A stretch of 32,000 nt of DNA. Origin: an archaeon (GTDB taxonomy: Archaea; Iainarchaeota; Iainarchaeia; Iainarchaeales; 1-14-0-10-31-34). The notes under the pieces are model-generated. The model was not told where the DNA came from, did no database searches, and saw only the letters and a program-made list of their open reading frames with translations. A program made the translations under genes and the position numbers. The stretch is from positions 90,001 to 122,000 of the forward strand of contig JAJRVL010000004.1 of NCBI GenBank assembly GCA_024277355.1. Reading direction: 5' to 3'. Of the stretch, positions 2,495 to 32,000 are shown piece by piece. Position 1 is the first letter of the stretch. Every line of letters begins with the position of its first letter.

Positions 2495-2538
2495 ATTCCT
2501 TCACTTAATAGTTAATTTTATTCTTAATAAACTTTATC

Positions 2539-3762: not shown

Positions 3763-3791
3763 AAATCATCAACTTCCTTCTTTTTTTTCTT

Positions 3792-5885
3792 TTAAACTGC
3801 TTTCTTTAAGTGTGTTTCATTTTCTTTTTTTTCTGGTTGTTCTTCTGATTTTTTTTCGGTTTCTTTTGCTTTTTTTGGCATTGAAAATAATCCAGGAATC
3901 TCTTCATCTCCCTGAACTTTAAAAGTATTTTGTTTTTTTCCGTCTTTTACTTTAAACATTGATTCTAATTCTTTATCATCAAATGAATCTTCTACTTTTT
4001 TTCTTTCACCAAAAACTTCTTCATCTTCAACATCTTTAATTCCTTCTGTTTCCTGAGTTTTCTTAAACGATTCAATTGCTGAATCAATATCTCTTAACTC
4101 AGAAGAATACTGAGACAATAAAGAATAATATTGTTCGTTTCCAACTGCGCCTAAATTAAAGTATTTTTCCTGTAAATCGCTTTTTAATTTTTCCAGATCC
4201 TTTTTTCTTTTTTTCAGTGAACTTAACCTGTCCATTCTTTTTCTTATAACTATAATAACTACAATAATAAAAACAAAAGCAAAAATAACTGAAAGAAACA
4301 ATAAAGGATTTTCTCTGAAATAATACTCTAAAGTTAATTCTCCAGTTACTTCAAATAATTTAGTAAAAGTAATTGAATTACCAAAAGCATCTGATGCTTT
4401 AACATTTAATAATAATTGTCTTGCTTCAGATAAATCTTCATTATTTACAACATAAGAAAAATAAAATACTCCTTGTTCTTTTTCTGCTGCAAAAATATTT
4501 TTATCATTTATTTTAATTGAAACTTTAGCTTTGTTTAATGGTTTTCCATTTTCATAAGAAAATTTTAATTTAAATTTTAATTCTTCACCTAAAGCAGCTG
4601 TTTCTTTTTTTGGTTCAAGCAAAACAGGAATAATTTTTGCATTATCCACTGTAATAGTTAATTCATTTGAACCCCCGTATTTAATTGAACCAATTGTTTT
4701 TCTTGCATTAATTAAAATTTTTTGTTCACCTAAAGGAAAATCAAACGGAATTAAATAAGACAAAGAATATTTTCCATTTGAAACCATTCTTAAATCAACT
4801 TCTTTTCCATCAGGAAACAAAGCAATTACATCTGCATCTTCAACTGGTTTTTCATCAAACAATATATCCACTAAAAGTTTTATTTCCTGTCCTCGTCCAT
4901 AAAGTTTTTCATAATCAGAAAAAGTTACATCCATAAAAATTGTTCCGGTTTCCCTGCTTACAATAATATTTTTTTCTTTTAAGCCTTCGTTGTCAAAAGA
5001 ATCTGCTCCTGAAACTCTTAAAATCCAGTTTCCTTCAGGATAAATTAAACTTGTTCTCTGCTCTAAAGAAAAAAATCCGTTTTCATCTGATTTAGTTTTA
5101 TTTTCAAGAATTTTTATGCCTTTATTTAAAGCAGAAACAGTAATTACAGTTGAAATTGGTTTGCCTCTTTTAAATAATCTTCCATTAAAATTAATTATTT
5201 CTCCTAAAACAAAATTATTTTTATCTATTTCAAAATTTAAATCAAGAGAAGGATTAACTTTAACAATAAAATTTTTTACTGCACTAACTCCTAATTTTTC
5301 TGCATAAATTTCTGAAGCATAATCTGCTTTAACTGTTAATTCTGAAACCAAAAAACTTACTCCATAAACTCCATCATGTTCTTTTCCATCTAAATGATTT
5401 CCATCATCATACATTGGAATATCTCCTGCAAAAGTTTTAACCCTAACATTTGCATTTCTTGCAGTTACGCCGTCAGCTTTAACTTTAGCTTTAAATGTAA
5501 TTTCATCTCCCCTCAAAAAAATATTTGAGTCAGCTGGTTCAAGTAATTCAATTGTAATTGTTGTTGGAGCACAATCAGAATCACAGTTAGCAAAATCTTC
5601 TCCTGATTCACAAATATTGTTTCCGCAGCAATAATATTTTATTTGAGCACGGCATAAACCAGTTAAACAACTGTATTCTTTACATACGTCTCCCTGTACA
5701 TCCCCTGAACAAGTTCCGCAGTCACCAGAACAAGTGCATTTATCTTCGCCTGAATCACAGGTTCCATTATTATTGCAAGTAGATAAATCCCATATTAAAG
5801 GAGTATAATTATTAAATAATTCAGCAAAACCTACTGGAAGCAGTAAAAGCAAAAAAATTAATCCAAAAACACTAATTTTATTCAT
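3792..5885 (-). CDS. Type I single-pass surface protein: signal peptide, Cys-rich module, 4-5 Ig/MG-like repeats, TM helix, 150-aa cytoplasmic tail (SHOCT-like motif plus acidic/lysine-rich end)
   Basis: The track starts at a TTG (5909). The ATG at 5885 gives a much better signal peptide (MNKISVFGLIFLLLLLPVGFA) and has a GGTGA SD 9 nt upstream. There are 14 Cys in residues ~45-113. Repeats follow the pattern G(D/E).h.h...G.P...A.V.......G.Y. TM helix: LLFLSVIFAFVFIIVVIIVI. Tail: LKSDLQEKYFNLGAVGNEQYYSLLSQYSSELRDIDSAIESFK. Confidence 0.8.
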   Translation of the reverse strand: MNKISVFGLIFLLLLLPVGFAELFNNYTPLIWDLSTCNNNGTCDSGEDKCTCSGDCGTCSGDVQGDVCKEYSCLTGLCRAQIKYYCCGNNICESGEDFANCDSDCAPTTITIELLEPADSNIFLRGDEITFKAKVKADGVTARNANVRVKTFAGDIPMYDDGNHLDGKEHDGVYGVSFLVSELTVKADYASEIYAEKLGVSAVKNFIVKVNPSLDLNFEIDKNNFVLGEIINFNGRLFKRGKPISTVITVSALNKGIKILENKTKSDENGFFSLEQRTSLIYPEGNWILRVSGADSFDNEGLKEKNIIVSRETGTIFMDVTFSDYEKLYGRGQEIKLLVDILFDEKPVEDADVIALFPDGKEVDLRMVSNGKYSLSYLIPFDFPLGEQKILINARKTIGSIKYGGSNELTITVDNAKIIPVLLEPKKETAALGEELKFKLKFSYENGKPLNKAKVSIKINDKNIFAAEKEQGVFYFSYVVNNEDLSEARQLLLNVKASDAFGNSITFTKLFEVTGELTLEYYFRENPLLFLSVIFAFVFIIVVIIVIRKRMDRLSSLKKRKKDLEKLKSDLQEKYFNLGAVGNEQYYSLLSQYSSELRDIDSAIESFKKTQETEGIKDVEDEEVFGERKKVEDSFDDKELESMFKVKDGKKQNTFKVQGDEEIPGLFSMPKKAKETEKKSEEQPEKKENETHLKKAV

Positions 5886-5944
5886 TAAACATTTCACCGC
5901 AAACTTCAATTAAATTTATTTCAAAAAATTCATTCATTAATTTT

Positions 5945-15076: not shown

Positions 15077-17158
15077 ATGGCTTTTACAACAGATGAATTA
15101 ATTCAGATTGGATTAATTGTAGGAATAATAATTGTTTTTGGTTACACTATATTCAATTACTTAAAGAACAAAGGATTATTAGAAAAATTAACCCAAAAAA
15201 CAGAAAAAAGAACTGAAAGACCTGCAGCTAAATCATTATCTTTTGCAAAAAACAGAAAAATGAGAGGATTAGAAAAATTAATTCCAGACAAAAAATTAAG
15301 TAAAAAACCAATTTTAACTGAATTAAGAATTGAAAGCACTGAAGGATTGTGGGAACCAGAAAAAGAACCTTTAATAGAAAACAAATCTGAACAAAAAACA
15401 GAAATAAAACAAAAAGAAATTCCCTTTAAACCTGAAATAAAATCAAAAGAAGAAATTAAATTATCTGAATTAAAGCCTGAATCAAAATCTTCAGCAAAAG
15501 GAATATTATCTGACATTATATTAAAAATTAAAACAGAAAAACAGGAAATTTTAAAACCAAAAATTGAGCCAGCAAAACCAAAAGAAGAAACAAAAAAGTT
15601 TGAATTCAAAAAAGAAAAACCAAAAGATAAACTTGAAATTAAAAAACCAGAAATAAAACCAATTGAAAAAAAATTAAAAACGGAAACAAAAGAAAAAGGA
15701 TTTTTTGAAAAATTAGGGTTTAATTTAAAACTTAAAGCTAAACAAAAAACAATAGAAAAGAAAAAAGAAAACAAATTTGAAGAAAAATTAAAACAGTCAA
15801 TTCAGAAAAAACCTGAAATAAAAGAAAAATCAAAAACAGAAGGAAAAAAAACAGAATTAAAAGAAACAGAAAAAAAAGATTCAGTTAAGTCTTTAATTAA
15901 ACCTGCAGACGCTTTTGCTTTACCTGAAGAAAAAAATAAAACTAATGAATTAACTGTAGCAAGAAAATTAGAAGAAAAAATAAAAGGATATCAAGAAAAA
16001 GCCAGAAAAAGCCAGAAAAAACCAAAAACAAATGTTTTATTTGACAATCAAGAAGAAAAAGAAAAACATGAACAAAAATTCGTTCAAAAAATCCTTGAAT
16101 CAGAAGAAGAAGAGGAATTAGAAAAAATAAGCAAGGCAATAGACCCAAAAACAGACAAAAACTGGCAGAAAGAAAAAGAAGAAACAATTAAAGCGCTAAA
16201 AAAAGAATTCACTGATTTAGATAAAACAGAAAAAAAAGATTTATGGAAAAAACCTGAAGAAAAACAGGAAATTCATAAAAAAGAAGAAGAACAAAAAAAT
16301 AAATTAATTCCTAAAGCATTTCCTGAAAAACCAAAAACAATAATTCCTGAGATAAAAAAAGAAATTAAAACAATTAAACCAAAAAAAAGCTTTTTTGATT
16401 TTTTTAAAAGGAAAAAAACAGCAGGAAAAAAACATGAAATAAAACAAAAAGAAATTACAATTAAAAAATCTGAACCAGAAATAAAAAAAGAAATAATTAC
16501 TAAACCAACTGAAACAAAAAAAGAAAAAACAGAAATAAAAAACAAAAAACCAGTTGAATTAAATAAAAAAATTAAACCAGAAAAAAAAGAAAAAGAATTA
16601 ATTAAACCTGTTAAAGAAATTAAACCTGAAATAAAAAAAACAAGCACTTCAACAGAAGAATTAAATGCAGAAATGAGAAAACTAATTGAAGAACAACAAA
16701 AAGCCAAAGGAATAAAACCAAGAAAATTTAAATCAAGAAAAGAAACTGAAATTAAAGCTAAAGATATTGAAATCAAAAAAGAAGTTCCAATAAAAATTAA
16801 ACCAAAACAAGAAGAACATTCATTGAAACCTGAAATAAACGAAAAAATAAAACCACATTTCGAGAAAAAACAAGTTATCAAAACAGAAATAAAAAAACCT
16901 GAATTTAAACCTGAAATAAAAACAGAAAAAAAAGAAGAAACTAAACCAAAACAAAAAAAGAAAGGTTTGTTTGAAAGATTTGGATTAAAAAAAGAAAAAA
17001 TTAATTTAACTAAAGCAGAAGAAGATCAACTGCAAAAAATAATGATAGTTTTAAAAGGAAAAACGTCTGAATATTCAAGGGACGACATGAGAGATGCAAT
17101 GAAAAACTTAGGTTACACTGAAAAAATAATTGAAGAAGCAATAAAAAGGTTGTATTAA
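15077..17158 (+). CDS. N-terminally membrane-anchored protein with ~580-aa K/E/P-rich low-complexity spacer and a small globular C-terminal domain
   Basis: TM helix LIQIGLIVGIIIVFGYTIFNY. Recurrent KPEIK-type motif. Three amphipathic motifs: GFFEKLGF, SFFDFFKR, GLFERFGL. The C-terminal 50 aa (LTKAEEDQLQKIMIVLKG...MKNLGYTEKIIEEAIKRLY) are shared with the next gene. The stop overlaps the next gene's ATG. Confidence 0.65.
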   Translation: MAFTTDELIQIGLIVGIIIVFGYTIFNYLKNKGLLEKLTQKTEKRTERPAAKSLSFAKNRKMRGLEKLIPDKKLSKKPILTELRIESTEGLWEPEKEPLIENKSEQKTEIKQKEIPFKPEIKSKEEIKLSELKPESKSSAKGILSDIILKIKTEKQEILKPKIEPAKPKEETKKFEFKKEKPKDKLEIKKPEIKPIEKKLKTETKEKGFFEKLGFNLKLKAKQKTIEKKKENKFEEKLKQSIQKKPEIKEKSKTEGKKTELKETEKKDSVKSLIKPADAFALPEEKNKTNELTVARKLEEKIKGYQEKARKSQKKPKTNVLFDNQEEKEKHEQKFVQKILESEEEEELEKISKAIDPKTDKNWQKEKEETIKALKKEFTDLDKTEKKDLWKKPEEKQEIHKKEEEQKNKLIPKAFPEKPKTIIPEIKKEIKTIKPKKSFFDFFKRKKTAGKKHEIKQKEITIKKSEPEIKKEIITKPTETKKEKTEIKNKKPVELNKKIKPEKKEKELIKPVKEIKPEIKKTSTSTEELNAEMRKLIEEQQKAKGIKPRKFKSRKETEIKAKDIEIKKEVPIKIKPKQEEHSLKPEINEKIKPHFEKKQVIKTEIKKPEFKPEIKTEKKEETKPKQKKKGLFERFGLKKEKINLTKAEEDQLQKIMIVLKGKTSEYSRDDMRDAMKNLGYTEKIIEEAIKRLY
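15250..17000 (+). repeat. Coding low-complexity region (degenerate KPEIK / KKE repeats)
   Basis: Motif instances read directly: FKPEIKSKEE, KKPEIKPIEKK, KKPEIKEKSK, IIPEIKKEIK, SEPEIKKEII, IKPEIKKTST, LKPEINEKIK, KKPEFKPEIKTEKK. The DNA is A-rich on the sense strand, which generates long spurious antisense ORFs. Confidence 0.7.
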
Positions 17159-19692: not shown

Positions 19693-19709
19693 TATTAGAG
19701 GCTTTGTTT

Positions 19710-20267
19710 ATGATTCCGGAGTTAAGCGAAATACGAATTAAAAGAAAAGAACTTCATTTGACACAAGAAGAACTTTCAGAAAAAAGCAGCGTACCGCAGT
19801 CAGTTATTGCAAAAATAGAAAACAATAAAGTAATTCCTTCATATGAAAACGCAAAAAGAATTTTTGATGCATTAAGCTTTGAACTGAAAAAAAAACAGAC
19901 AGTAAAAAGCATTATGAGAAAAACACTTGTTTCAGTTTTAGAAAAAGAAAAAGTTTCTGAAGCAATTAATTTAATGAATAAACATGGAATAAGCCAGCTG
20001 CCTGTAATGAAAAAAAACATTCCAATTGGAACAGTAACAGAAAAAAATTTAATTGAAAAAATTAATTCAGGAACAATAAATTCTTCAGATAAAGTAAAAG
20101 AAGTAATGGAAGGTTGTCTTCCAATACTTGAAAGCAATTCAGTAATTGAAGTTGTTTCTTCTTTATTAAAATATTATCCTGCAGCATTAATCAAAGAAAA
20201 AGACAAAATAGTAGGAATTGTTACAAGAACAAATATTATAAGAAAGGCAATTCCTTCAAAAAGCTGA
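19710..20267 (+). CDS. Transcriptional regulator: XRE-type HTH plus CBS-domain pair
   Basis: HTH: LTQEELSEKSSVPQSVIAKIENNKVIPSYENAKRIFDAL. CBS1: VKSIMRKTLVSV...LMNKHGISQLPVM. CBS2: VKEVMEGCLPILE...IVGIVTRTNIIRKAI. The track start at 19704 is TTG; the ATG is at 19710. Confidence 0.85.
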   Translation: MIPELSEIRIKRKELHLTQEELSEKSSVPQSVIAKIENNKVIPSYENAKRIFDALSFELKKKQTVKSIMRKTLVSVLEKEKVSEAINLMNKHGISQLPVMKKNIPIGTVTEKNLIEKINSGTINSSDKVKEVMEGCLPILESNSVIEVVSSLLKYYPAALIKEKDKIVGIVTRTNIIRKAIPSKS

Positions 20268-20348: not shown

Positions 20349-20561
20349 ATGAATACTAATCCAAATATGTCAAATTACAATAATTTTTATGCTAATGCTG
20401 ATTTATCAAAATACGCCGGAGAATGGGTTGCAATAATTAACAGTAAAGTTGTAGCTCATGGAAAAAACTTAAAAGACATTATGAAAAAAGCTAAGGAAAA
20501 AGATTCTACTATTACTCCATTTATTGCTAAAATCCCTTTAAAAGAAATCATGATTTGGTGA
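20349..20561 (+). CDS. Small (70 aa) protein, DUF5678-like by recollection
   Basis: The core YAGEWVAIINSKVVAHGKNLKDIMKKAKEK resembles small archaeal/cyanobacterial proteins of pattern (W/Y).GKWVAI.dgkVva.g.dl.e....A. There is a good SD. The stop overlaps the start of the next gene. The family name is from memory and unverified. Confidence 0.6.
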   Translation: MNTNPNMSNYNNFYANADLSKYAGEWVAIINSKVVAHGKNLKDIMKKAKEKDSTITPFIAKIPLKEIMIW

Positions 20562-20977
20562 TTTTTTTGTCTCTTTCTTTCAGATACAGGAAAGAAAAAT
20601 TCAAGAATAAAACAAGCTATTTTCCAAAAATTCCAGTATTACTTTATAACGAAGGAATTTCCATAGAAACTCCTGCATTACTTGATTCAGGGGCAACAGA
20701 TTTGTTTATTCCAAAAGAAATTGCAGAAGAATTTGAACTTAACTTAAGAAATCCAGATACTGCAGAAAGCTGGACTGGAAAATTTAAAGTCTGGGAATCA
20801 AGGATAGGAATAGTTGTAGGAAAAGGAAGCCAAACTTTTAGAAAAGTACTTCCCTGCATTGTTCCAGATAAAAAAGGAGAACACGATCAAGTTGTTCTTG
20901 GGAGAAGTTTCTTCAGATTTTTTGAAATTACCTTTAATGAAGACAAAAAAATAACAAAATTAAAAAGACTTGTCTGA
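20555..20977 (+). CDS. Retropepsin-like (clan AA) aspartic protease
   Basis: The active-site motif ALLDSGATDLFIP (D-S/T-G-A) and the C-terminal VVLGRSFFRFFEITFN (compare ILG.DfL..f.v.fd) are typical of single-lobe retropepsin-like proteases. There is no ATG, so the start must be TTG (20555) or GTG (20558), overlapping the upstream stop. Confidence 0.75.
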   Translation: MVIFLSLSFRYRKEKFKNKTSYFPKIPVLLYNEGISIETPALLDSGATDLFIPKEIAEEFELNLRNPDTAESWTGKFKVWESRIGIVVGKGSQTFRKVLPCIVPDKKGEHDQVVLGRSFFRFFEITFNEDKKITKLKRLV

Positions 20978-21080: not shown

Positions 21081-21866
21081 ATGAAATTAAAATATTTAAT
21101 TCTTCCTTTGCTTTTGGTTTTTGCATTAAATGCAAATGCTTTTACTTCTGATTTACCTAATTTTATTAATTTTTATGAAGAACCTGAAACAATAAGTTTT
21201 TTTGTTGAAAATGATTCAGGAAGCATTCAGCCATTAAATATCAGTGTTTTTTCTCCTTTAGCTTATGAAATACAGGGAAAAAAGAATTTTATTGAATCAG
21301 GAGAAAAAATTCAGATTGACTTAGTTTTTTTTCCTAAAGAAGAATTAATTAATTCAGTTTATGAGTCAAGTGTTTTAATTGAATTAGGAAATGAAAAAAC
21401 AAAAAATAATTTTTCAATGTATTTTTTGAAAAGAAATTTTTGTCCAATGGAATTTAATGCAGAACAAAAAGGAAATTTAATTGAAGTTAAAGTAAAAAAT
21501 AATTCTTTTTATGAAACTAAACTGGAAGTTTTAGGATTAAAAAATAAAGAAAACTGGAGTATAGAAAAAAAAGTTTTTTCTTTTGATTCAGATGAAGAAA
21601 AAATCATTTCGTTAAGTGTTTCAGGTTTTGGTTCAGAAGAAAATAATTCAGTTTTAATTAAATGCAATGAATTAGAAGAAGAATTTAATGTAAAATTAGA
21701 AAGCAGGAATTCAAATGTTATTTCAGCAACAGGCAATGTTCTTGTCACTGAATTTGGAGAATTAACTGAACCAATTAATGTTGTTTTAATTGTAATTGCT
21801 TCAGTTTTATTGATTTTATTTATTTCAAGATTAGTTAAAAGATTAAACAAGGAGGAAATTAAATGA
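21081..21866 (+). CDS. Type I surface protein: signal peptide, two NEW3/CARDB-like beta-sandwich modules, C-terminal TM anchor
   Basis: The ATG at 21081 gives MKLKYLILPLLLVFALNANA (the track's GTG at 21066 adds 5 codons). Modules: ISFFVENDSGS...ESGEKIQIDLVFFP and IEVKVKNNSFY...DEEKIISLSVS. TM helix VVLIVIASVLLILFI with a short basic tail. ATGA overlap with the next gene. Confidence 0.7.
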   Translation: MKLKYLILPLLLVFALNANAFTSDLPNFINFYEEPETISFFVENDSGSIQPLNISVFSPLAYEIQGKKNFIESGEKIQIDLVFFPKEELINSVYESSVLIELGNEKTKNNFSMYFLKRNFCPMEFNAEQKGNLIEVKVKNNSFYETKLEVLGLKNKENWSIEKKVFSFDSDEEKIISLSVSGFGSEENNSVLIKCNELEEEFNVKLESRNSNVISATGNVLVTEFGELTEPINVVLIVIASVLLILFISRLVKRLNKEEIK

Positions 21867-23635
21867 AAAAATTAATGTTGTTTTTGATTTTGATTGCATT
21901 GCTTTCAAATGTTAATGCTTTAATTGAACCTGAAAAAAATATTGTTTCAGTGGCTTATGATGAAAGTTTTTCTGTTGCAGTTAAAGTGAAAAATGATTCA
22001 AATGAAAAAGCATTAATTCATTTAAGTTCTTTTAGTTCAATTAAAACAGATTTTTCGGTTAATGATTTTTATTTAAATGCAGGAGAAGAAACAGTTATTG
22101 CATTGAATATTCTTTCATATTATTATAACAGCAATACTAATATTGAATTAAGAGCAGAATACAATGGAATTACTGAATATGCTGATTTAACTGTTATTAC
22201 AGGAAACAGTTCAGGAAAAGTCAACTTAAAATATTACAAGCAGAATATATGCAGGAATGGATTAGATAAATTAAGTTTATGGATTAAAAATGATTCTTTA
22301 ATTACCCAAAAAATTAAGTTAAGTGCTGACTCAGAAGTTTTTTTGCCTTCAATTTACCCTGAATTAATTGAATTAAATGCAGGACAAGAAAGATTTGTTG
22401 AATTAGAATTATATTCAAATAATTCTTTTCCATTAAAAGATTATTCAGTTAATGTTGTACTTGAATCAGAAAATGAAATTACTTCAAGAGAAATATTTTT
22501 TGAGTTAACTGAATGCATTGAAATAGAAAAAGGATTTAGATTAATTATTCCTGATTCTTTTTTGAGTATTGAAAAAGGAGAAACCAAAAAAATTTATTTT
22601 AGTGCAAGAAATTTAAGTGATAAAGATAATGAAATTTCTTTTGCAGTTAAATCAGATTTAATTACTGAATTACAGCAGACTAAAACTGTGTTGGCTGAAG
22701 GAGAAACAAGAAGATACTGGATTGAAGTAAAAGCATTAAAAACTGATGAAGCAGGAAAACATAAACTTGAATTATATGCATTTAATCCTTTTATTGAAAT
22801 AAAAAAAATAATTAATGTTAATGTAAAAAAAATGCATGAAGTTAATGCAGAATTATTAACTGATAACCTTGAAATTGAAAGAGGCCATTCAGGTGTTTTT
22901 TCTTTGTTAATTGAAAACAAAGGCGATTATAAAGAAAAAATTGAAATAAATTATTTTTCTGAAGAAGAAATTAATGTTTTGTTTTCAGAAAACGATTTTT
23001 ATTTAAATGAAAAAACTGATAAAAAAATTTATTTTTCTATTAACCCTTTAGTTAATGCAGAATTAGGAGAAAAAGAAATTGAAGTTAAAGTTAATGAAAA
23101 AACAATTTTAGTTAATTTTAGTGTAATAGAAGAAGAAAAACCATTAATTACTTCAGGAGTAATTGAATTGCTTTCAGTTCCTGAAAAAATCACTTTAACT
23201 GAAGAAACAGAAATAAAGGTTCTAATTAAAAACATTTCAGGAGAAAAAATTGAAAATACATTCTTTTGGATTGAAGGCCTTCCTAAAGGAACTGCCTTTG
23301 AATCAGTTTCAATTAAAGAAATAAACAACGAAAAAACAAAAGAGTTTACTGGAAAAATTCTTTTAGATGAAAAAGCAGTAAAAGGAAGTTATAGTATTAC
23401 ATTAGTTTTTGAAAACAGTAAATTCAGACAAAAAAAAGAAATACAATTAATTATTCTGGAACAAGAAAAACAAGAAGAAAAAGAAATACATGAAAATGAT
23501 TTTCTTGCAGGCTTGATTTCTTTTGGTTCAATGGAAGGAATTGGATTAATTGTAATTGCATTAATTATTTTAATTTTGTTATTAAATCCAGGAAAACAAA
23601 AAGAAAAATGGAATATAAGGGGGAATAAAAAGTGA
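21863..23635 (+). CDS. Type I surface protein: signal peptide, ~5 NEW3/CARDB-like modules, C-terminal TM anchor
   Basis: Signal MKKLMLFLILIALLSNVNA. AAGGAGG SD upstream. Repeated h.h.h.N.(S/G)....h.h...........(F/L).L..GE...h.h.h pattern (for example VKVKNDSNE...LNAGEETVIALNI; WIKNDSLIT...LNAGQERFVELELYS; LLIENKGDY...). TM helix GIGLIVIALIILILLL. GTGA overlap with the next gene. Confidence 0.75.
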   Translation: MKKLMLFLILIALLSNVNALIEPEKNIVSVAYDESFSVAVKVKNDSNEKALIHLSSFSSIKTDFSVNDFYLNAGEETVIALNILSYYYNSNTNIELRAEYNGITEYADLTVITGNSSGKVNLKYYKQNICRNGLDKLSLWIKNDSLITQKIKLSADSEVFLPSIYPELIELNAGQERFVELELYSNNSFPLKDYSVNVVLESENEITSREIFFELTECIEIEKGFRLIIPDSFLSIEKGETKKIYFSARNLSDKDNEISFAVKSDLITELQQTKTVLAEGETRRYWIEVKALKTDEAGKHKLELYAFNPFIEIKKIINVNVKKMHEVNAELLTDNLEIERGHSGVFSLLIENKGDYKEKIEINYFSEEEINVLFSENDFYLNEKTDKKIYFSINPLVNAELGEKEIEVKVNEKTILVNFSVIEEEKPLITSGVIELLSVPEKITLTEETEIKVLIKNISGEKIENTFFWIEGLPKGTAFESVSIKEINNEKTKEFTGKILLDEKAVKGSYSITLVFENSKFRQKKEIQLIILEQEKQEEKEIHENDFLAGLISFGSMEGIGLIVIALIILILLLNPGKQKEKWNIRGNKK

Positions 23636-26121
23636 ATAAAAAGAATTTTTTATGGATTGGAATAGGAGTAATATTAATTTTAATGAGTTTTATAGTTAAT
23701 GCTCATACTTTAAACGGAGACTTCAGCGGAATAGCTTTTCAGGGAGAAACAATTGAAAGTGCTTTTGTTTTATGCAACACAAGTGATTCAAGTGAAAACT
23801 TCAGAATAAATTCAGATAATTCATGGATGACTTTAAGGCCTTTAAGTGTTTACTTAAATGCAAATTCATGCGGAGAATTTTTTGCTTTTACTACCCCGGA
23901 TCCATATGCCCAATCAGGAAATTATGAAATAACAATTACTGCTCAAGGAAACCAAAGTATTTCAGGAATATTTGATTTAACTGTAGCAGAAGGACACAAA
24001 ATAAACATTCAGTCAAATCAAAGTTTAATTAATTCAACTCAATGCAAAGAAGAATTATTTAAATTTGAATTAACTAACACAGGAATATTTGATGAAAAAA
24101 TACTTCTTTCAGTTGAAGGATTAAATCAAAACTGGATTGAATTAAGTTCAGAAGAAATTCTTTTACCAAAAAATTCAATGCAGGAACTTGAATTAAAAGT
24201 TTTAATTCCTTGTAATCAGGAAACAAAAAACTATGACTTAAAATTAAAAGCAGAACTAAAAAACACAGGAATAACTAAAACAAAAAATATTTCATTAAAC
24301 ATTGAAAACGCACAAGAAATTTTAATTCAGAATAAATCTTTCAGTTCATGCAATGACTTAAAAACAAAAGATTCAATTTCATTAACAAATACTGGTTTAT
24401 TAACTGATGAATTAACTTTAGAAATTCAGGGAAATAACTGGATTTCATTAAACCAGACAAAAATTTCATTAAATTCAAATGAAACAAAAGAAATTGAATT
24501 AAATTTTAATGGAATAGAAACTGAAGCAAAAAATTATTCTTTTACTTTAAAAGTTTACTCAGAAAAATTCAATCAATTATATGAAAAAGAATTTAATGTT
24601 TTAATTGAAGACTGCTTTGATTTAAGCATTGAATCCCAATCAAAAGAAACAGCTTGCATTGAATCAAATCCAGAAGCAGTTTATATTCTGAAAAACAATG
24701 GAACAAAAAAAATGGTTTTTCAGTTAAACCTTGAAGGCATTAAAGCAGAATTAGAAAAAAATTCTGTTTCATTAAATTCAAATGAAAGCATTGAAGTAAA
24801 AGCAAAACTTGATTTCAGTGAAAGCAAAACAGGAGAAACAAACTTTGTTTTTATTGCTGACTCAGAAAACTATTCAAAAAGCATTGAAAACACAATATTA
24901 ATACAGGACTGTTATAATACTGAAACAATTGTTCCTGAATTAAATTTATGCAAAGAAATTCCATCAACAAACAATATTACAATAAAAAATACCGGAACAG
25001 AAAAACAAGTTTTTTCAGTTTCCTCAACAGTTGAATGGATTAACTTAAAAGAAACAGACTTTGAATTAAATTCAAATGAAGAAAGAATAATTGAATTAAA
25101 TGCTTTACCAAAAAAAGATTCAACTGAAAACAGGTATTCAATTAAAACAAAAACAGAAAACAACCAGTTTATAATGAACGGAAAAATCAATTATTTAAAT
25201 GAAACTGAATGTTTTGGAATAGAAATGACTAACTTAAAAAATACCATTGATGTTAATGCAGGAGAAGGTGCAGTAACAACCATTAAAGTTTCAAACAAAG
25301 GAAAAACCATTCAGACAGTAAGTTTTGATTTAAAAGAATTATGGGTTTATTTTAATCCAAAAGAATTTTCTTTAAATAAAGGAGAAACAAAAGAAATTTA
25401 CGTTTATTTTAATCCTCCTTTTGACTTTAAAGAAGAACAAGCAGTAGTAATAGTTAAAGCAAAAACAAACTTTGGTTTTGAAACACAAAAACAAGTTGAA
25501 GTAAATGTTTTTGGAGGAAGTATTGTATTAACTATTAATCCTGAAGACATTAAAGTTAATTCAAAAGAAGTGGAATTAAAAGATACAAACGAAAATACAA
25601 TTGAAATTAAAATTGAAATAGAAAACAATACAGAAACAAGCATGAAAATACTTGACGTAAAAACAAATTTTGATTCAAGTTATTTTATTGAAGAACCAGT
25701 AATAAAAAAAGATTCAACAAGAGAAATATTACTGAAATTTACTGCAAGTGAAGAACTTGAATTAAATGGATTAGAGATTCCGGTTGAAATAATTTCAGAT
25801 AAAGGAACTTATTATAAAATTGTAAAACTTCCTGAAAAAGAAACAAAAGAAGACCAAGAAAAAACAGGAGAAACAGGGTTTGTTTTATTCGGAGAAAATG
25901 ATTATGTTTTAGTTATTCTTGTTGTAATTGTAGTTATTTTAATTATTATGGCTGCATTAAGAACAGATGAAAAATCAAACAAAGAAGAAAAAGGCACAGT
26001 AGTTGATTATTCTCCTGAACAGGACTTCCAGAAAGAACTCAAAGAAATAATTACAAAAAAACCTCAGACAAGGAAAAAAACAAGCAGTAAAACAAAGAAA
26101 AAACCAACAAGAAAAAGATAA
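23632..26121 (+). CDS. Type I surface protein: signal peptide, ~8 NEW3/CARDB-like (COG1470-style) modules, TM anchor, basic cytoplasmic tail
   Basis: GTG start with an AGGGGG SD. Signal FLWIGIGVILILMSFIVNA. Modules such as FKFELTNTGIFDEKILLSVEGLNQNWIELSSEEILLPKNSMQELELKVLIP fit the NEW3 pattern (v.N.G....v.l....p.gW.v......l.pg.s..v...v). TM helix YVLVILVVIVVILIIMAAL. Tail KKPQTRKKTSSKTKKKPTRKR. Confidence 0.8.
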   Translation: MNKKNFLWIGIGVILILMSFIVNAHTLNGDFSGIAFQGETIESAFVLCNTSDSSENFRINSDNSWMTLRPLSVYLNANSCGEFFAFTTPDPYAQSGNYEITITAQGNQSISGIFDLTVAEGHKINIQSNQSLINSTQCKEELFKFELTNTGIFDEKILLSVEGLNQNWIELSSEEILLPKNSMQELELKVLIPCNQETKNYDLKLKAELKNTGITKTKNISLNIENAQEILIQNKSFSSCNDLKTKDSISLTNTGLLTDELTLEIQGNNWISLNQTKISLNSNETKEIELNFNGIETEAKNYSFTLKVYSEKFNQLYEKEFNVLIEDCFDLSIESQSKETACIESNPEAVYILKNNGTKKMVFQLNLEGIKAELEKNSVSLNSNESIEVKAKLDFSESKTGETNFVFIADSENYSKSIENTILIQDCYNTETIVPELNLCKEIPSTNNITIKNTGTEKQVFSVSSTVEWINLKETDFELNSNEERIIELNALPKKDSTENRYSIKTKTENNQFIMNGKINYLNETECFGIEMTNLKNTIDVNAGEGAVTTIKVSNKGKTIQTVSFDLKELWVYFNPKEFSLNKGETKEIYVYFNPPFDFKEEQAVVIVKAKTNFGFETQKQVEVNVFGGSIVLTINPEDIKVNSKEVELKDTNENTIEIKIEIENNTETSMKILDVKTNFDSSYFIEEPVIKKDSTREILLKFTASEELELNGLEIPVEIISDKGTYYKIVKLPEKETKEDQEKTGETGFVLFGENDYVLVILVVIVVILIIMAALRTDEKSNKEEKGTVVDYSPEQDFQKELKEIITKKPQTRKKTSSKTKKKPTRKR

Positions 26122-26244: not shown

Positions 26245-26814
26245 ATGAATCGTTTTGTAAGCGACAAAAACATATTAAATGAATTCATAAAAGATTTTGT
26301 TAAAGTTATTGAAAAAAATAAAATAAATTACATTATTGTTTCAGGTTTTGTTGCAATTTCTCATGGAAGAAGCAGAGGAACAGAAGATATTGACTTAATA
26401 ATTGAAAGAATTTCCTTTGAACAATTCAATAAATTCCATAAAAACATAACTAAAACTGATTTTGAATGCCTTCAGGGAAAAAACCCTGACAGGTTATTTA
26501 CTGATTATTTAAAAGAAAATCTTAGTTTACGTTATGTAAGAAAAAATAGTTTTATTCCTGAAATGGAAATGAAAATGTCAAAAGATGCTTTAGATGAAAA
26601 ACAGTTAAATGAAAAAACAAAACTTAAATTAACTGGACTTCCATTTTATTTTTCTACTATTGAAACAAATATTGCATTTAAAGAAGAATTATTTAAATCC
26701 CCAAAAGACATTGAAGATTCAAGACATTTACGCATAATTTATGCTGAAGAATTAAATGAAAGCAAAATAAATGAAATAAAAAGATTAATAAGAAAATACA
26801 GGCTAAAAGATTAA
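26245..26814 (+). CDS. Minimal nucleotidyltransferase-fold protein (pol-beta superfamily, DUF-type)
   Basis: IIVSGFVAISHGRSRGTEDIDLIIE matches the vGG.A...hG..R.T.DiDl.v NTase pattern. The C-terminal TNIAFKEELFKSPKDIEDSRHL matches the li..K...gR.KD..D...L helix seen in such proteins. The subfamily was not verified. Confidence 0.65.
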   Translation: MNRFVSDKNILNEFIKDFVKVIEKNKINYIIVSGFVAISHGRSRGTEDIDLIIERISFEQFNKFHKNITKTDFECLQGKNPDRLFTDYLKENLSLRYVRKNSFIPEMEMKMSKDALDEKQLNEKTKLKLTGLPFYFSTIETNIAFKEELFKSPKDIEDSRHLRIIYAEELNESKINEIKRLIRKYRLKD

Positions 26815-26815
26815 T

Positions 26816-27004
26816 ATGAAAAATGAAAGATTAGAACATGTTGAAAAATGGGCTTTTCACTGTAAAAACAACATAAAGGAATGCCAAAAAGAATTAACTC
26901 CTTTTATTAATGCTCAAATAGAAAACGCAAACAAATTCTATAAAAAACTTGCTAAAACAAAAAACGGCAAAGAAAAAATAAAGAAAATAAAAAGAATTAA
27001 ATAA
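26816..27004 (+). CDS. Small (62 aa) helical, basic hypothetical protein, adjacent to the nucleotidyltransferase gene
   Basis: The ATG lies 1 nt after the upstream stop. Contains WAFHCKNNIKECQKEL and a lysine-rich end. No recognisable family. Coding status rests on position and frame only. Confidence 0.4.
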   Translation: MKNERLEHVEKWAFHCKNNIKECQKELTPFINAQIENANKFYKKLAKTKNGKEKIKKIKRIK

Positions 27005-27158: not shown

Positions 27159-27878
27159 TTAAAGTCTGCTTAAATATTTTGCAATAAAAGGGCTTTCAAT
27201 CAATAAAGCCTTTTCATCTTCTTCTTTTTTTTCATTAAAAAACAACAAAACTTTTTTGTTGTCAAACAACATAAACCTTGAATTATTTTTTGACTGAATT
27301 ACATTAAAATCCTTGAATTCCCTGCCTATTCTGCTTCCATTAACTGAATTCAACACAAATTTCAAACCAATACCTTTATCTTTTAAACTCTTGAATTTTG
27401 TGTTAAAGGACTGTATTTTCTTTAAAGCATTAGCTTCAGATGTAGAAATAACCACGCTTTCCTGTGCATTTTTTAATGATTCAGCTATAATATGGTTTAT
27501 TTGGTTGCCTGAAACACTCCATGCCTGAGAAAAGCTTTCTTTTTGAGGAACTTTATCAAACTTCTTTTTTAATAATCCTTTTAATGAATTCATTTCATTT
27601 AACTGGCTTTCAAAAGCCTTTCTTTTTTGTTTTTCAAAATTAACTAAAGCTTTTTCTGGTTCAACTGCCTTAAATGAAACAGGTCTTCCAATTGAAATCA
27701 TTACAAAACCTTTTTTTTCTAATACTAATAAAACATCATAAACTCTTGCTCGAGGAATTCCTGCTTTTTTGCTTATCTCAGAAGCAGTTAAAAGGTTCCC
27801 TGAACTTAAAGAAGAATAAACTTTTGATTCATATTCATTTAAACCAATTCTTTTCAGCAAAGCAGTTAATTCATTCAT
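27159..27878 (-). CDS. TrmB-family transcriptional regulator
   Basis: The N-terminus LKRIGLNEYESKVYSSLSSGNLLTASEISKKAGIPRARVYDVLLVLEKKGFV is the canonical TrmB winged-helix signature (lGLs.yEakvY..Ll..g..ta.ei....g.Pr.kvY.vL..Le.kGfv). AGGGGT SD upstream. Confidence 0.85.
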   Translation of the reverse strand: MNELTALLKRIGLNEYESKVYSSLSSGNLLTASEISKKAGIPRARVYDVLLVLEKKGFVMISIGRPVSFKAVEPEKALVNFEKQKRKAFESQLNEMNSLKGLLKKKFDKVPQKESFSQAWSVSGNQINHIIAESLKNAQESVVISTSEANALKKIQSFNTKFKSLKDKGIGLKFVLNSVNGSRIGREFKDFNVIQSKNNSRFMLFDNKKVLLFFNEKKEEDEKALLIESPFIAKYLSRL

Positions 27879-28793: not shown

Positions 28794-31700
28794 TTAATTT
28801 TCAACTTCAAATACTCCTGTAACAAACTTATAGTCAATACATGAAAGACATTGAATTACATTTGAACAGGTTTTGCATGCTTCAGGTGTTTCAATCAGAG
28901 GTTTAGATTCAATTACTGTTGTATCTGAAACTTTTGTCGGCTTGCAGTAATCATTACCTAATTCTATTTCTTTCCCATAATTTTCTTTGAATATTCTGTA
29001 CCACGCAATAACACTTGGAACATATGTTTCTCTTGTGCTTGTTGCTTTAATTTCAGTACAAGAAACATTTTTTGGACCTGAATTATATCCTGCAATCTTT
29101 AATGCAGTTTTCCAGGTTGCTTTTGCAATTCCTGAATTAACTAACACTTTATTTAATTCTTCTTCATTACAGTTTAATCCATTAATCTCTTTTTCTAATG
29201 AATTATCTCCTGCTTCAGTTGAATTAAAATATCTTGTTCCTGCCCAAATACTATTTTCTGAGTCAGCCCAGCTTTCAGTTGTCTTCCAGTCTAAACCAAA
29301 AATATCCATCCAAGAATCTAAATTTGTTTTATGAATCTGCATTAAACCATAAGAACTTTCATTTCCGCTTTCATCAGGACCAATTGCATCAGGAACAAAA
29401 GAACTTTCCTGCTGAATTATTGCTCTGATTAAATCTGCGTCCATTGAATAATGATTTTCATTTCCATATCTTTCAATTAAAGAATCATATTTCTCTGCAT
29501 TCTTCATTGCGATAACACAATCTGCACTTTGTTTACCTAATCTTACTGTTTCTTTTTTTGTTACTTCTGCTTTAAAAGTAATTTTTTTATCTTCTCCTGG
29601 AGTTAAAACAATTGTAGTGTCTTCTGGAGTTAATTTAACGGTATAATCAGTTGAATCAGTTGGACTGCATAAATCATTAGGATATGGCGGTTGGTCACAA
29701 ACATAATCTAAACCATCTATTAAACTGCATGAATCTGGTGCAGGCGGCTGATCACAAATGTACAGTTCTCCAATTGTTGCAGGCACTTCAACTGGCTTTA
29801 ATGGAACTTCTTGTTCTTCATAAATTTCAATTACAACTCTTGTTGCATCAGGATAATTTGGAATTGGATCTAATCTTAAATCTTTAATCTCTCCTGGAAT
29901 CTGTTTTAGGATTTCATCTATTGCATCTTTAATTACATCTTCAGAACATTCAACTTCCAAGTCACATTCAATTGTTATTCCAATTTCAGTTGTATCTTTT
30001 GGAGTTGAGTCTGTTTTCATTTGAACTTCAATTGAAGCAGCTTCATAATTTGGTTCAACAAAAGTTCCTCCAAAAATTTCTTTTCCATCCGCATAACCTT
30101 TTAAATCACATTTTCCGTCTCCGGTTTTATCCTGACAAACAAAAAACTGGAAAGTAGAATTATCCCAATTTTTTAAAATTATTCTTGGCTGAGCTGAAGA
30201 AGAAAAAGATTCATAAGAAAAAGTCAATCCATTTTCTTTTGCATCAAGGAAATCAACTAAAACTGAAGTTCTAGGATAATAATTTAATGTTTTTATAGTG
30301 CTTGGAATTTCACCGTGTTTTGTTCCATTTTCATCAAATACAATAATTGAAAAAAACCCTTTTTTACTTTTATCATATTCCTGTAACATAACTGAAAATT
30401 GTTTGTCTGCTTTTGTTTCTGCTTTATCTAAATAAACTATATGTTCAGGAACTTTAGAACCTGGATTTCTTATTATTTTTTTTCCATCAACAGAAGCAAT
30501 CTGCAAGTTTTTTTGTTTTCCGTCAGAAGTTTTTGGAGTTTCTGAAGAAATTACCGGAGAATCAAATAACAATGAATCACTTTTTCCAAAAAACTTGTTT
30601 ATTCCGTTTTCACTAAAATCAATTATCCCAGTGTTTTCAGTTATTGGCTGAGGAAAAACTGCTCCAAACACACCATATATTATGTCTTTTAAATAATCAT
30701 AATAATTAGTTGAATTTGAATCCTTAATAATTAAATTATATTTTTTTCCTTTAATTAATTCAACAGTAAAACGATCTTTTTTTGCTATATCAGGATTAAT
30801 TACAATAATATCATTGTCTTCTTTTAATGCCTTAAAATCAATTATGTTTTCAAAGTTTTCTTTTGCAAAAACCTTGTAATTATCTTCTCCTAAAATTACA
30901 GTTAAAGTAAATTTATTATCTGGTTTTGAAACAATTGTTTTAGCAGTATCTTTTGGAACAGTAATTTGAGTGTTTTCTGCAGAATTACTCCAAACCCATG
31001 CTTTAGTTGCAGTTGAATCAGGAATTTTAATTGTTATTTCTTCTCCTTGAGAAAATAAAACAGGCCAAGTATTTATTCCTTCAGAATCCACTCTTAAAGT
31101 AGTAAATGGAACAAAAACTTCTTTTCCAGTTGAATCTTCTACAATTGGAGTAACTGAAACTGAATCCATTGCATTAATTACTTCTTCTGGAATTAAAACA
31201 TCAATTTTTGCTGTCTGTTTTTTTATGTTAATTTTATTTCTTAAATCAATTACAGTATCAGAAGAAACAATAATTTTATCTGAAACCCAATCCTGCAATT
31301 CAGAGGAATTTGAAATTAATTTTAATTTATAAGAATTTTTTGGAACTTTACCTGAAAGCAAAGCAAAAGAATTCTGTGAAAGATAAATTGATTTTGCATT
31401 AATTGTATCATAAAAATCAAAAGTTAATTTTCCTTCATTTAAATAATCCATTACTTCTAAACCTAAATTTATTTTTAAATTAAATTCTTTTTCTTCATAA
31501 AGTTGTTTTGTTTTAACTTGTTTTAATAAATCATAACCATCTAAAATAGAAAATTCAATTGTGTTTGCCTGGCTTGCAATAACAGATTTCAGTATTTGTC
31601 TGTTGCTGATTATTAATTCAATCGAAGTTCTTTCAGGTACAAAAGAAAATTCTAATACAGGAGTAGTTTTATCAAAAGAATCTAAACCAAAAAAATAAAC

Positions 31701-32000
31701 AAATAAGGGAAGTCCTTCTAATTTATATAAAACAGGAGTTTTTGGATCCAAATTTTCTGTTTCAAAAGAATATTTTCCGTTTCCTAAACTTTTAGCTAAA
31801 GGAATTTCTTTCAGTGTATCTGTTTCATTATAAGTTATTGCTAAAGAAACAGTGTTATCTGAATTAACTGAAACTAATTCGACATCAACAATTGAACAAG
31901 AAGCAGTTCTATTTGATGCAGTTAATTCAATTGATGCATTTGAAAATAATCCTGTACCACAATCATATTCTATAAAAGGAAATTCTTTACTTTCCATAAA
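28794..32000 (-). CDS. Giant (>=1067 aa) beta-rich protein with C-terminal SLT-type lytic transglycosylase domain; probably 5'-partial
   Basis: The frame stays open to the window edge (the codon upstream of the ATG at 31997 is TTT). The visible N-terminus MESKEFPFIEYD has no signal peptide, so the true start is probably upstream of the window. ~750 aa of beta-strand-rich sequence, a tandem CDQPP motif, one Ig-like module, an SLT domain and a Cys-rich end. Confidence 0.85.
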   Translation of the reverse strand, partial: FMESKEFPFIEYDCGTGLFSNASIELTASNRTASCSIVDVELVSVNSDNTVSLAITYNETDTLKEIPLAKSLGNGKYSFETENLDPKTPVLYKLEGLPLFVYFFGLDSFDKTTPVLEFSFVPERTSIELIISNRQILKSVIASQANTIEFSILDGYDLLKQVKTKQLYEEKEFNLKINLGLEVMDYLNEGKLTFDFYDTINAKSIYLSQNSFALLSGKVPKNSYKLKLISNSSELQDWVSDKIIVSSDTVIDLRNKINIKKQTAKIDVLIPEEVINAMDSVSVTPIVEDSTGKEVFVPFTTLRVDSEGINTWPVLFSQGEEITIKIPDSTATKAWVWSNSAENTQITVPKDTAKTIVSKPDNKFTLTVILGEDNYKVFAKENFENIIDFKALKEDNDIIVINPDIAKKDRFTVELIKGKKYNLIIKDSNSTNYYDYLKDIIYGVFGAVFPQPITENTGIIDFSENGINKFFGKSDSLLFDSPVISSETPKTSDGKQKNLQIASVDGKKIIRNPGSKVPEHIVYLDKAETKADKQFSVMLQEYDKSKKGFFSIIVFDENGTKHGEIPSTIKTLNYYPRTSVLVDFLDAKENGLTFSYESFSSSAQPRIILKNWDNSTFQFFVCQDKTGDGKCDLKGYADGKEIFGGTFVEPNYEAASIEVQMKTDSTPKDTTEIGITIECDLEVECSEDVIKDAIDEILKQIPGEIKDLRLDPIPNYPDATRVVIEIYEEQEVPLKPVEVPATIGELYICDQPPAPDSCSLIDGLDYVCDQPPYPNDLCSPTDSTDYTVKLTPEDTTIVLTPGEDKKITFKAEVTKKETVRLGKQSADCVIAMKNAEKYDSLIERYGNENHYSMDADLIRAIIQQESSFVPDAIGPDESGNESSYGLMQIHKTNLDSWMDIFGLDWKTTESWADSENSIWAGTRYFNSTEAGDNSLEKEINGLNCNEEELNKVLVNSGIAKATWKTALKIAGYNSGPKNVSCTEIKATSTRETYVPSVIAWYRIFKENYGKEIELGNDYCKPTKVSDTTVIESKPLIETPEACKTCSNVIQCLSCIDYKFVTGVFEVEN
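28990..29480 (-). other. SLT (family-1 lytic murein transglycosylase / goose-lysozyme-like) catalytic domain
   Basis: Three canonical motifs in order. AIIQQESSF (catalytic Glu codon at 29406-29408). SYGLMQIH (29334-29348). IAGYNSGPKNV (about 29064-29090). WAGTRYF lies in between. Confidence 0.8.

Follow-up and report, generated by a model that had tools for sequence, protein, structure and literature searches.

A widespread three-gene operon of Iainarchaeales encodes immunoglobulin-type surface proteins that may form one membrane-anchored complex

A 32,000-nucleotide (nt) stretch of archaeal DNA, referred to here as the window (GenBank assembly GCA_024277355.1, contig JAJRVL010000004.1, positions 90,001 to 122,000), carries three overlapping genes for exported proteins, P1, P2 and P3, and the locus raises the question of whether these proteins act as a single assembly on the cell surface and of what kind. 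The host is an Iainarchaeota (Diapherotrites) archaeon with a genome of 1.13 Mb that is 96% complete. Named homologues of P1 come from Ca. Diapherotrites and Ca. Iainarchaeum, and one close homologue of P2 is labelled 'Micrarchaeota' at NCBI, a label that is taken as loose. An initial annotation of the window proposed a stoichiometric hetero-complex of graded chain length, such as a surface layer (S-layer)-like coat, a fibre or an adhesin array. The reading preferred here, with a probability of roughly 0.55, is that the three products form one membrane-anchored surface complex in which P2 and P3 are paired, P1 is a partner, and the whole acts as an adhesive stalk. The existence of a complex is suggested by order-wide retention and adjacency of the genes, co-evolution of cysteines, conservation of the P1 transmembrane (TM) segment, a gene fusion in one relative and domain extensions of P2. 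The features of the operon are as follows.

21081..21866, + strand: gene 1 (P1), open reading frame (ORF) of 261 amino acids (aa); signal peptide 1-20, module 1 at 21-118, dispensable module 2 at 119-211
21771..21842, + strand: TM segment of P1 and its end, residues 231-254; family consensus LxxIAAxLLIAFIxRxxxR
21849..21855, + strand: Shine-Dalgarno (SD) motif of gene 2, AAGGAGG, within the end of gene 1
21863..23635, + strand: gene 2 (P2), 590 aa; signal peptide 1-19, five sandwiches, TM segment 559-577
22829..23137, + strand: P2 module 4, the putative contact module; position 341 corresponds to nt 22883-22885 and is Gly here
23618..23623, + strand: SD motif of gene 3, AGGGGG, within the end of gene 2
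23632..26121, + strand: gene 3 (P3), 829 aa, GTG start; signal peptide 1-24, seven sandwiches, TM segment 758-777
25207..25521, + strand: P3 module 6, the putative contact module; position 544 corresponds to nt 25261-25263 and is Gly here

The three ORFs described by the initial annotation are present, as are the 4-nt overlaps (ATGA at 21863-21866 and GTGA at 23632-23635) and the SD motifs ahead of genes 2 and 3. The signal peptide and single C-terminal TM segment claimed for each product were recovered by hydropathy, and the AlphaFold2 models of P2 and P3 agree. A -4 overlap is common in this genome, where a crude ORF caller finds it in 74 of 753 co-directional ORF pairs, so the overlaps carry little information by themselves. 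In P1, module 2 is followed by a TGxF-like stretch, the strongly conserved TM segment and a short basic tail. The modelled sandwiches of P2 span residues 20-115, 116-216, 217-322, 323-425 and 430-535, after which come an acidic linker, an AGLI motif, the TM segment and a short tail with a Trp. Those of P3 span 25-120, 121-227, 228-326, 327-425, 426-525, 526-630 and 631-735, followed by a TGFV motif, the TM segment and a Lys-rich tail of 52 aa. P1, P2 and P3 contain 6, 7 and 15 N-glycosylation sequons, respectively.

An indication of a physical contact comes from the cysteines. Most of them fall into pairs that are gained or lost together within a chain (P1 121-195; P2 51-70, 130-218 and 233-318; P3 48-80, 138-194 and 31-114), and P3 240-328, 342-427 and 440-527 are almost invariant wherever the module is present. 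Co-occurring pairs within a chain are read as intrachain disulfides, of which the window P3 has five (48-80, 138-194, 240-328, 342-427 and 440-527). At P2 position 341, in module 4, 61 of 121 homologues have a Cys that is partnerless within its chain (best phi 0.47); a lone Cys at 543/544 of P3 module 6 is found in 52 of 81 homologues. The sample comprised 81 genomes with both modules, three of 84 having been dropped for lack of module 6, and in these C341 and C544 are both present in 49 and both missing in 23, an agreement of 72/81. Each trait changes 11-12 times on the tree. Among the 9-10 independent pairs that differ in the Cys trait, about seven change in the same direction and none in the opposite direction (sign test, median p = 0.016), a result obtained with the P2 tree as well as with a P3 tree from which the trait columns had been left out. 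Ten control Cys traits changed in the same direction in 0-2 pairs. Three of the 23 genomes with neither cysteine (G021, G025 and G132) have P2 C397 and P3 C597 instead; neither cysteine occurs in any other genome, and the shift has 2-3 independent origins. In the models, the turn that leads into strand B holds 341/544, and the loop that follows strand E holds 397/597; the modules concerned are homologous. The two loops are close together, because an intrachain Cys pair bridges them in P3 modules 1 and 2 (38-91 and 138-194). C341 is found in none of the 31 genomes that have no gene 3 orthologue beside gene 2. Five further rows without P3 do have C341 and are contig-end or inserted-gene cases; four of them have a strong P3 match elsewhere in the genome, and the fifth genome, G165, is 55% complete.

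These changes suggest, as the simplest reading, that an interchain disulfide bridges the penultimate modules in a pseudo-twofold contact, both modules standing at equal height above a shared membrane. It is very probable on this evidence that P2 and P3 form a heterodimer that is disulfide-linked in many species. For these two chains the hetero-complex of the initial annotation gains support from the co-evolving unpaired cysteines, and P1 probably belongs to it as well. Only the tree-based test separates 341-544 from clade-specific Cys traits. When 504 interchain Cys column pairs were ranked blindly by phi, clade-specific traits dominated and 341-544 was outside the top 22. Mean-field coupling of P2 module 4 with P3 module 6 (81 rows) placed 341-544 first of 8,925 pairs with z 6.8; shuffled P2-P3 pairings reached z 8.5, 4.6 and 5.7, and the rank is not counted as evidence.

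The operon is widespread in the order. When 41 genomes were searched with single proteins, P1 was present in 31, P2 in 38 and P3 in 28. A P1 profile matched 189 of 215 genomes of the phylum. Within the order its matches cover 184 of 196 genomes, with 163 of them at E ≤ 1e-10; outside the order it matched 5 of 19 genomes, four of them weakly. These P1 tallies, the count of P3-less genomes with C341 and the S_layer_C co-distribution given below were counted by hand. The P3 profile matched 147 of 215 genomes at E ≤ 1e-10, of which 116 were at E < 1e-49; the remaining 31 weak matches are probably cross-hits to P2, and families f2, f31, f32, f24 and f30 gave no strong P3-profile match. In 151 genomes of the phylum of genome G217, titled Micrarchaeota, the P1 profile gave only weak matches, in 17 genomes (best E 2e-10), and of 10 such loci six were inspected, none of which proved P1-like. 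At E ≤ 1e-20, the P2 profile had 17 matches in that phylum; at several such loci, and at one in G214, a genome of another order, two related type I proteins are encoded side by side. To judge from their sequences, distant two-gene relatives of the operon exist in Micrarchaeota-titled genomes.

Gene order was followed in 38 genomes in a first round and at 100 of 150 listed P1 places in a second, which omitted places already covered or near a contig end; with G029 set aside as a fusion, 137 loci were available. Both P1 and P2 were called in 121 of these and all three genes in 84. Of 120 junctions between genes 1 and 2, 35 are -4 overlaps, 103 are at most 30 nt and seven exceed 200 nt; the 84 junctions between genes 2 and 3 are all 200 nt or shorter, 70 of them 30 nt or shorter. 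Separation of genes 1 and 2 was observed at none of these loci other than that of G032, where the two downstream type I genes are highly diverged, and the remaining non-adjacent cases are contig ends, inserted genes and split frames. In families without P3, the operon stops after gene 2 or the third type I gene is diverged. The synteny check proposed with the initial annotation therefore finds gene order conserved across relatives. In G029, P1 is fused in frame to the P2 signal peptide. As an observation apart, family f27 (L127, L128, L130, L138, L141, L145, L151 and L158) has a gene for a secreted, TM-less protein between genes 1 and 2, and its chains have extra unexplained cysteines (P1 58/63, P2 102/116 and P3 90/669); the inserted product may be a fourth, disulfide-bound subunit.

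Two features of the originally proposed assembly fare less well in this comparison. P1 ranges from 161 to 329 aa, P2 from 556 to 1646 and P3 from 458 to 1065, with a few sequences cut by contig ends. Of the 84 complete operons, 54 follow the order P1 < P2 < P3 and 29 have a P2 longer than P3, so that the graded length series of the window is incidental. Several families retain genes 1 and 2 but yielded no gene 3, which casts doubt on a fixed three-way stoichiometry. P1 retains module 2 in 48 of 121 homologues and has lost it in 73, P3 retains module 5 in 53 of 87, and a length coupling between these two modules is unsupported (0.6 of 4 independent pairs). The five-module core of P2 and its TM segment are nearly always whole in 121 homologues. 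An N-terminal extension of at least 90 aa precedes P2 in 56 of 120 relatives, and 11 of the 24 extensions that were scanned match FN3, PKD, Big, Ig or LamG families.

At the membrane end, the TM segment is the most conserved part of P1, with a modal conservation of 0.54; the corresponding values are 0.34 for module 1 of the same protein and 0.38 for the TM segments of P2 and P3. This part of P1 appears conserved beyond the needs of an anchor, and it seems somewhat more probable than its converse that P1 is a membrane-level partner of P2 acting through this segment. A complex prediction for P2 (20-582) with P1 (21-258), both entered as alignments, scored 0.00 in two runs with the verdict 'no answer', and mean-field coupling of P1 with P2 modules 4 and 5 (121 rows) gave top z values of 6.3-6.4 compared with 6.3-9.3 for shuffled pairings. 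A [TSA]G[LFMY][hydrophobic/S] motif precedes the TM segment in 87 of 136 P1, 100 of 121 P2 and 53 of 85 P3 sequences and occurs in 2-3% of ectodomain windows. The host genome has 30 predicted type I proteins, nine of which carry a looser form, so the motif is not confined to the operon. Unrelated type I proteins, from Iainarchaeota as well as from Micrarchaeota-titled genomes (host genome, G000, C10:61597, C2:144516 and C7:10075; L264, L265, L267 and L272), also have a TG[FL]F-like motif 5-25 residues before the C-terminal TM segment, and it may be an undescribed sorting or membrane-interface signal. No archaeosortase signal (PGF/PEF-CTERM) was matched in P1-P3 by NCBIfam, and none of them ends in LPETN-TM-basic. 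Such ends, a PEF/PGF-CTERM-like signal, are found on seven other proteins of the genome (G000 C1:59, C2:19635, C2:267370, C2:298209, C2:381315, C3:6420 and C10:132095), which also has two small exosortase/archaeosortase-family genes at G000 C3:12061 and C10:92022.

The ectodomains consist of related modules. P2 folds into five beta-sandwiches (AlphaFold2; predicted local distance difference test, pLDDT, 90.3; 121-row alignment) and P3 into seven (pLDDT 71.5; 26 rows; module 4 weak), whereas the two-module count of P1 comes from the alignment and module hidden Markov models (HMMs), the models covering P2 and P3; in the alignment of homologues P1 module 2 is absent as a whole block. The initial count of 2 + 5 + 8, about 15 modules, stands for P1 and P2; for P3, AlphaFold2 and the module HMMs give seven instead of eight, for a total of 14. 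The h.h.N.[GST] core of the module pattern noted at the outset is present in 14/14 modules. The proposed boundary motif (D/E)C(F/Y/I) occurs four times, NFCPM does not match it, and it is not a general boundary mark: a Cys lies at 5 of 11 module junctions and each is half of an intrachain disulfide, which explains the motif.

Assignment of the modules to a family depends on weak profile matches and on structure. In profile scans, P1, P2 and P3 of the window stay below every Pfam and NCBIfam cut-off. For PF10633 (NEW3/NPCBM_assoc), P2 reaches 14.9 bits compared with a gathering score of 24.4, and P1 and P3 have no match at E ≤ 0.1. At E ≤ 0.001, the 34 P2 homologues scanned match FixG_C in 15 cases, NEW3 in 12 and CARDB in one (E 3e-4). 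CARDB (PF07705) has no match in the window proteins and reaches a structural Z of 9.9, under the NEW3/FixG rows. Single modules of the P2 model superpose on solved domains with Z 11.5-12.6 and a root-mean-square deviation (rmsd) of 1.7-2.4 Å over about 100 residues (VIA-align); the matches are to Vpr, WxLIP, sialidase 1eut (Z 12.0, rmsd 2.0, 101 aligned), FixG-related 2r39 (11.8, 2.2, 97) and the PapD-like domain of Hydin 2e6j (11.5, 2.2, 105). The 1eut domain is presumably of NEW3 type. The models indicate that the modules are immunoglobulin (Ig)-like sandwiches of NEW3/FixG_C/PapD type; of the NEW3/CARDB-like family named originally, the NEW3 side agrees with profiles and structure and the CARDB side, found in one of 34 homologues, does not. 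The COG1470 label is presumptive, being used in Atlas cluster names. Foldseek with both models returned tandem ASH-domain ciliary proteins at low TM-scores, a repeat-fold match only, and a PDB sequence search with the P2 profile reached a best E of 0.047.

The 14 modules are 11-33% identical to one another (median 22%), full-length orthologues within the genus are 47-61% identical, and 70 of 91 module pairs reach an hhalign probability of at least 90. The all-vs-all alignment called for by the initial annotation thus supports common ancestry, and by sequence comparison the modules appear to be one ancient family in which each position is its own orthologous group. The inter-module identities rule out recent repeat amplification. 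Distant paralogues in the genome were detected by profile, and phmmer found no close ones there. A DNA-pattern scan with P2 found no relative, and scans for sigma-70 promoters and terminators, models unsuited to archaea, gave counts at chance level.

The mechanism that these results support would run as follows. All three chains are exported and then held by the C-terminal helix, as is evident from their sequences, and they would form one low-copy, membrane-anchored surface complex of Iainarchaeales. Each consists of NEW3/PapD-type Ig sandwiches in tandem, to which intrachain disulfides add stiffness, as models and Cys co-occurrence indicate. P2 and P3 would lie side by side and in register through P2 module 4 and P3 module 6, one module above the membrane, and an interchain disulfide would lock their pseudo-twofold contact in many species, the window family (Gly/Gly) pairing without it. 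P1, essentially one module with a conserved TM segment, would be an obligate membrane-level partner of P2, and P3 an accessory arm that is not found in some families. The complex would be a stalk presenting adhesive domains at or beyond the S-layer, with P2 as a fixed five-module base on which distal domains are swapped; adhesive display as the function is held tentatively, at slightly less than even odds. Several points weigh against this picture. The placement of P1 is inferred, and the G029 fusion may be an assembly error, for which loss of 2 nt at an ATGA overlap would suffice. In several families genes 1 and 2 come without a detected gene 3, the window family has Gly at both 341 and 544, which makes pairing in the window an extrapolation, and nine of 81 genomes are discordant (six with only P2 C341, three with only P3 C544). 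The rule for an 'unpaired' P3 cysteine was fixed after data inspection, and the trees are FastTree only. Raw Cys columns give 5.2-5.6 of 9 pairs in the same direction with none opposite, and a rule-free parity count gives 6.3 of 9, again with none opposite. Additionally, the window P2 has no recognisable binding domain, and 13 of the 24 scanned extensions match no Pfam family.

Other explanations have to account for the same observations, and those that invoke an S-layer turn on a second gene of the host. A 946-aa protein (G000 C2:446613-449453, - strand) has an S_layer_C match over cut-off and no C-terminal TM segment, lies about 330 kb from the operon on the same contig, and ranks second of 887 genes in C-ending codon use (99.8th percentile). 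P1, P2 and P3 are at the 4th, 32nd and 74th percentiles by this proxy for abundance. It is the probable main S-layer protein and may be MSTP-like. A genome-wide search found S_layer_C only at C2:449190 and C6:14360 and neither PF05123 nor PF07752, and P1-P3 have no S_layer_N, S_layer_C or PF07752 domain. The C6 match is the C-terminal part of a 304-aa protein (G000 C6:13877-14791, + strand) with an HTH-like N-terminus by eye (HTH, helix-turn-helix), and similar ORFs of 300-340 aa are the best S_layer_C matches in many genomes of the phylum. That P1-P3 themselves build an S-layer lattice or a polymeric fibre, as first proposed, is highly improbable. Tandem Ig domains with a TM segment form S-layers in other archaea, according to the parts of the sources available (10.1101/2024.05.28.596244; 10.64898/2026.08.21.746120), and the sequons would suit a coat; however, the codon bias of the separate S_layer_C protein compared with the low to average values of P1-P3, and lengths that vary up to threefold, oppose a coat, and the TM segment of each chain and the complete sandwiches of the P2 and P3 models are unlike a donor-strand fibre. 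An S-layer anchor or spacer, a heteromeric analogue of SlaB that sets the distance of the TM-less S-layer protein, is unlikely. The lack of a C-terminal TM segment in the 946-aa candidate, a fixed five-module P2 core suited to a ruler, near-universal retention in the order, which suits a housekeeping envelope role, and the Ig-like domains on a TM segment described for SlaB in the accessible text of PMC10903991 would favour it. However, the P2 and P3 models have no long helix before the TM segment that could form a coiled coil, the P1 linker is under 25 aa, and the S-layer gene is not linked to the operon. In family f30, gene 1 is present in 18/18 genomes and S_layer_C matches in none, and f34 has 12 genomes with S_layer_C matches and at most weak gene 1 matches; the two distributions appear decoupled, within detection limits and with S_layer_C matches that also include a shorter unrelated fusion protein, which weakens a SlaB-like anchor role.

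A receptor-like complex, in which a partner cell or surface is sensed by the ectodomain of P2-P3 and signalling runs through the P1 TM segment and cytoplasmic tails, would explain why conservation of that segment exceeds anchoring needs, the tail Trp in 68 of 121 P2 sequences, the long basic P3 tail (median 41 aa) and the regulators that are frequent neighbours. It is nevertheless improbable: there is no cytoplasmic signalling domain, the P3 tail varies in sequence and length, and both regulators are missing at many loci and are widespread archaeal genes. A more specific proposal, a DPANN partner-attachment receptor built as a disulfide-linked type I Ig heterodimer with swappable adhesive heads and a small third subunit whose TM segment couples binding to the cytoplasm, is speculative and rather unlikely; such disulfide-linked type I Ig-chain heterodimers have so far been associated with eukaryotic cell surfaces. 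If this partner-attachment reading were true, the receptor would be near-universal in Iainarchaeales. Finally, the three genes could be paralogues under common regulation whose surface proteins function separately or in homo-oligomers, in keeping with one module family ancestral to all three, a dispensable gene 3, module numbers that vary independently and the commonness of -4 overlaps in the genome. There is little probability in this, as it leaves the joint gain, loss and shift of a single Cys in two chains, and the fixed gene order, unexplained.

The preferred adhesive-stalk complex shares features with several known systems. NEW3 (PF10633), FixG_C (PF11614) and ASH-PapD-like domains have the same fold and the same h.h.N.G/S strand-B signature as the operon modules, and look-alikes in the Atlas are NEW3 proteins of about 420 aa from Woesearchaeota/Nanobdellota. 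Unlike known NEW3-type proteins, the operon comprises three position-specific orthologous families in fixed order with signs of an interchain disulfide. Fibrillar adhesins have an Ig stalk and a distal binding domain; the operon resembles them in its repeated Ig stalk, membrane anchor and the distal PKD, FN3, Big and LamG domains of P2 relatives, and differs in being heteromeric and short, in the lack of a distal extra domain on the window P2, and in modules that are ancient and position-specific (median identity 22%) rather than recent repeats. SlaB of Sulfolobales, as far as the available part of PMC10903991 describes it, likewise has a signal peptide, tandem beta-sandwiches, a C-terminal TM segment and sequons and forms an oligomeric stalk by the S-layer. 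It is a homotrimer held by a 132-aa coiled coil, whereas the operon would use different chains and an Ig-module contact, has no long helix and is unlinked to the S-layer gene. MSTP-like S-layers are assigned to neighbouring DPANN phyla, with Iainarchaeota named only in a figure legend in the portion of the source at hand (10.1101/2024.05.28.596244); such proteins are beta-rich, exported and part of the same envelope, but the S-layer role would fall to another gene of this genome and the operon encodes type I Ig chains.

A literature search, which left most subscription papers uncovered, found no description of the operon or of its heteromeric, disulfide-locked design; the domains are of a known kind, and it is the order-wide operon and this design that are undescribed in the literature searched. 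The same literature does not describe the cell surface and partner contacts of Iainarchaeota, which are uncultured archaea with small genomes. Retention in more than 90% of the genomes of the order would point to a core envelope function and a lineage marker. The co-evolving cysteines pinpoint the putative interface at residue level, which makes the complex directly testable, and a fixed P2 base with swappable N-terminal domains would offer a defined place to seek host or surface specificity.

Two regulator genes flank the operon and are given as context, their membership not being implied.

19704..20267, + strand: HTH-CBS gene, beside the operon in 22 of 37 first-round relatives
27159..27878, - strand: TrmB-family regulator, convergent and downstream, in 13 of 37 first-round relatives

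Small genes also adjoin the operon, at 20349-20977 (70 aa and a clan AA aspartic protease) and at 26245-27004 (189 and 62 aa), and are almost never present in relatives; by this comparison they are apparently recent insertions on both sides. At 28794-31997 (- strand; full ORF G000 C2:118794-122387) is the gene for a secreted protein of 1197 aa, which possibly acts on bacterial peptidoglycan. Its transglycosylase SLT domain scores over the Pfam cut-off (E 4.7e-12), and the SLT part adjoins the operon in five relatives of the same family. The ORF end at 1-2494 corresponds to the N-terminal portion of a secreted protein of 876 aa that has, by eye, CARDB-like repeats. A second cluster of exported proteins (831+, 407 and 705 aa) occupies positions 2-5909 (- strand). 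The 407- and 705-aa products each have a TM segment followed by a helical, charged cytoplasmic segment, and one has a weak choice-of-anchor X match. A 693-aa protein at 15077-17158 (+ strand) has one N-terminal TM segment and a body very rich in Lys and Glu, and ends in a short helical domain resembling that of the next gene.

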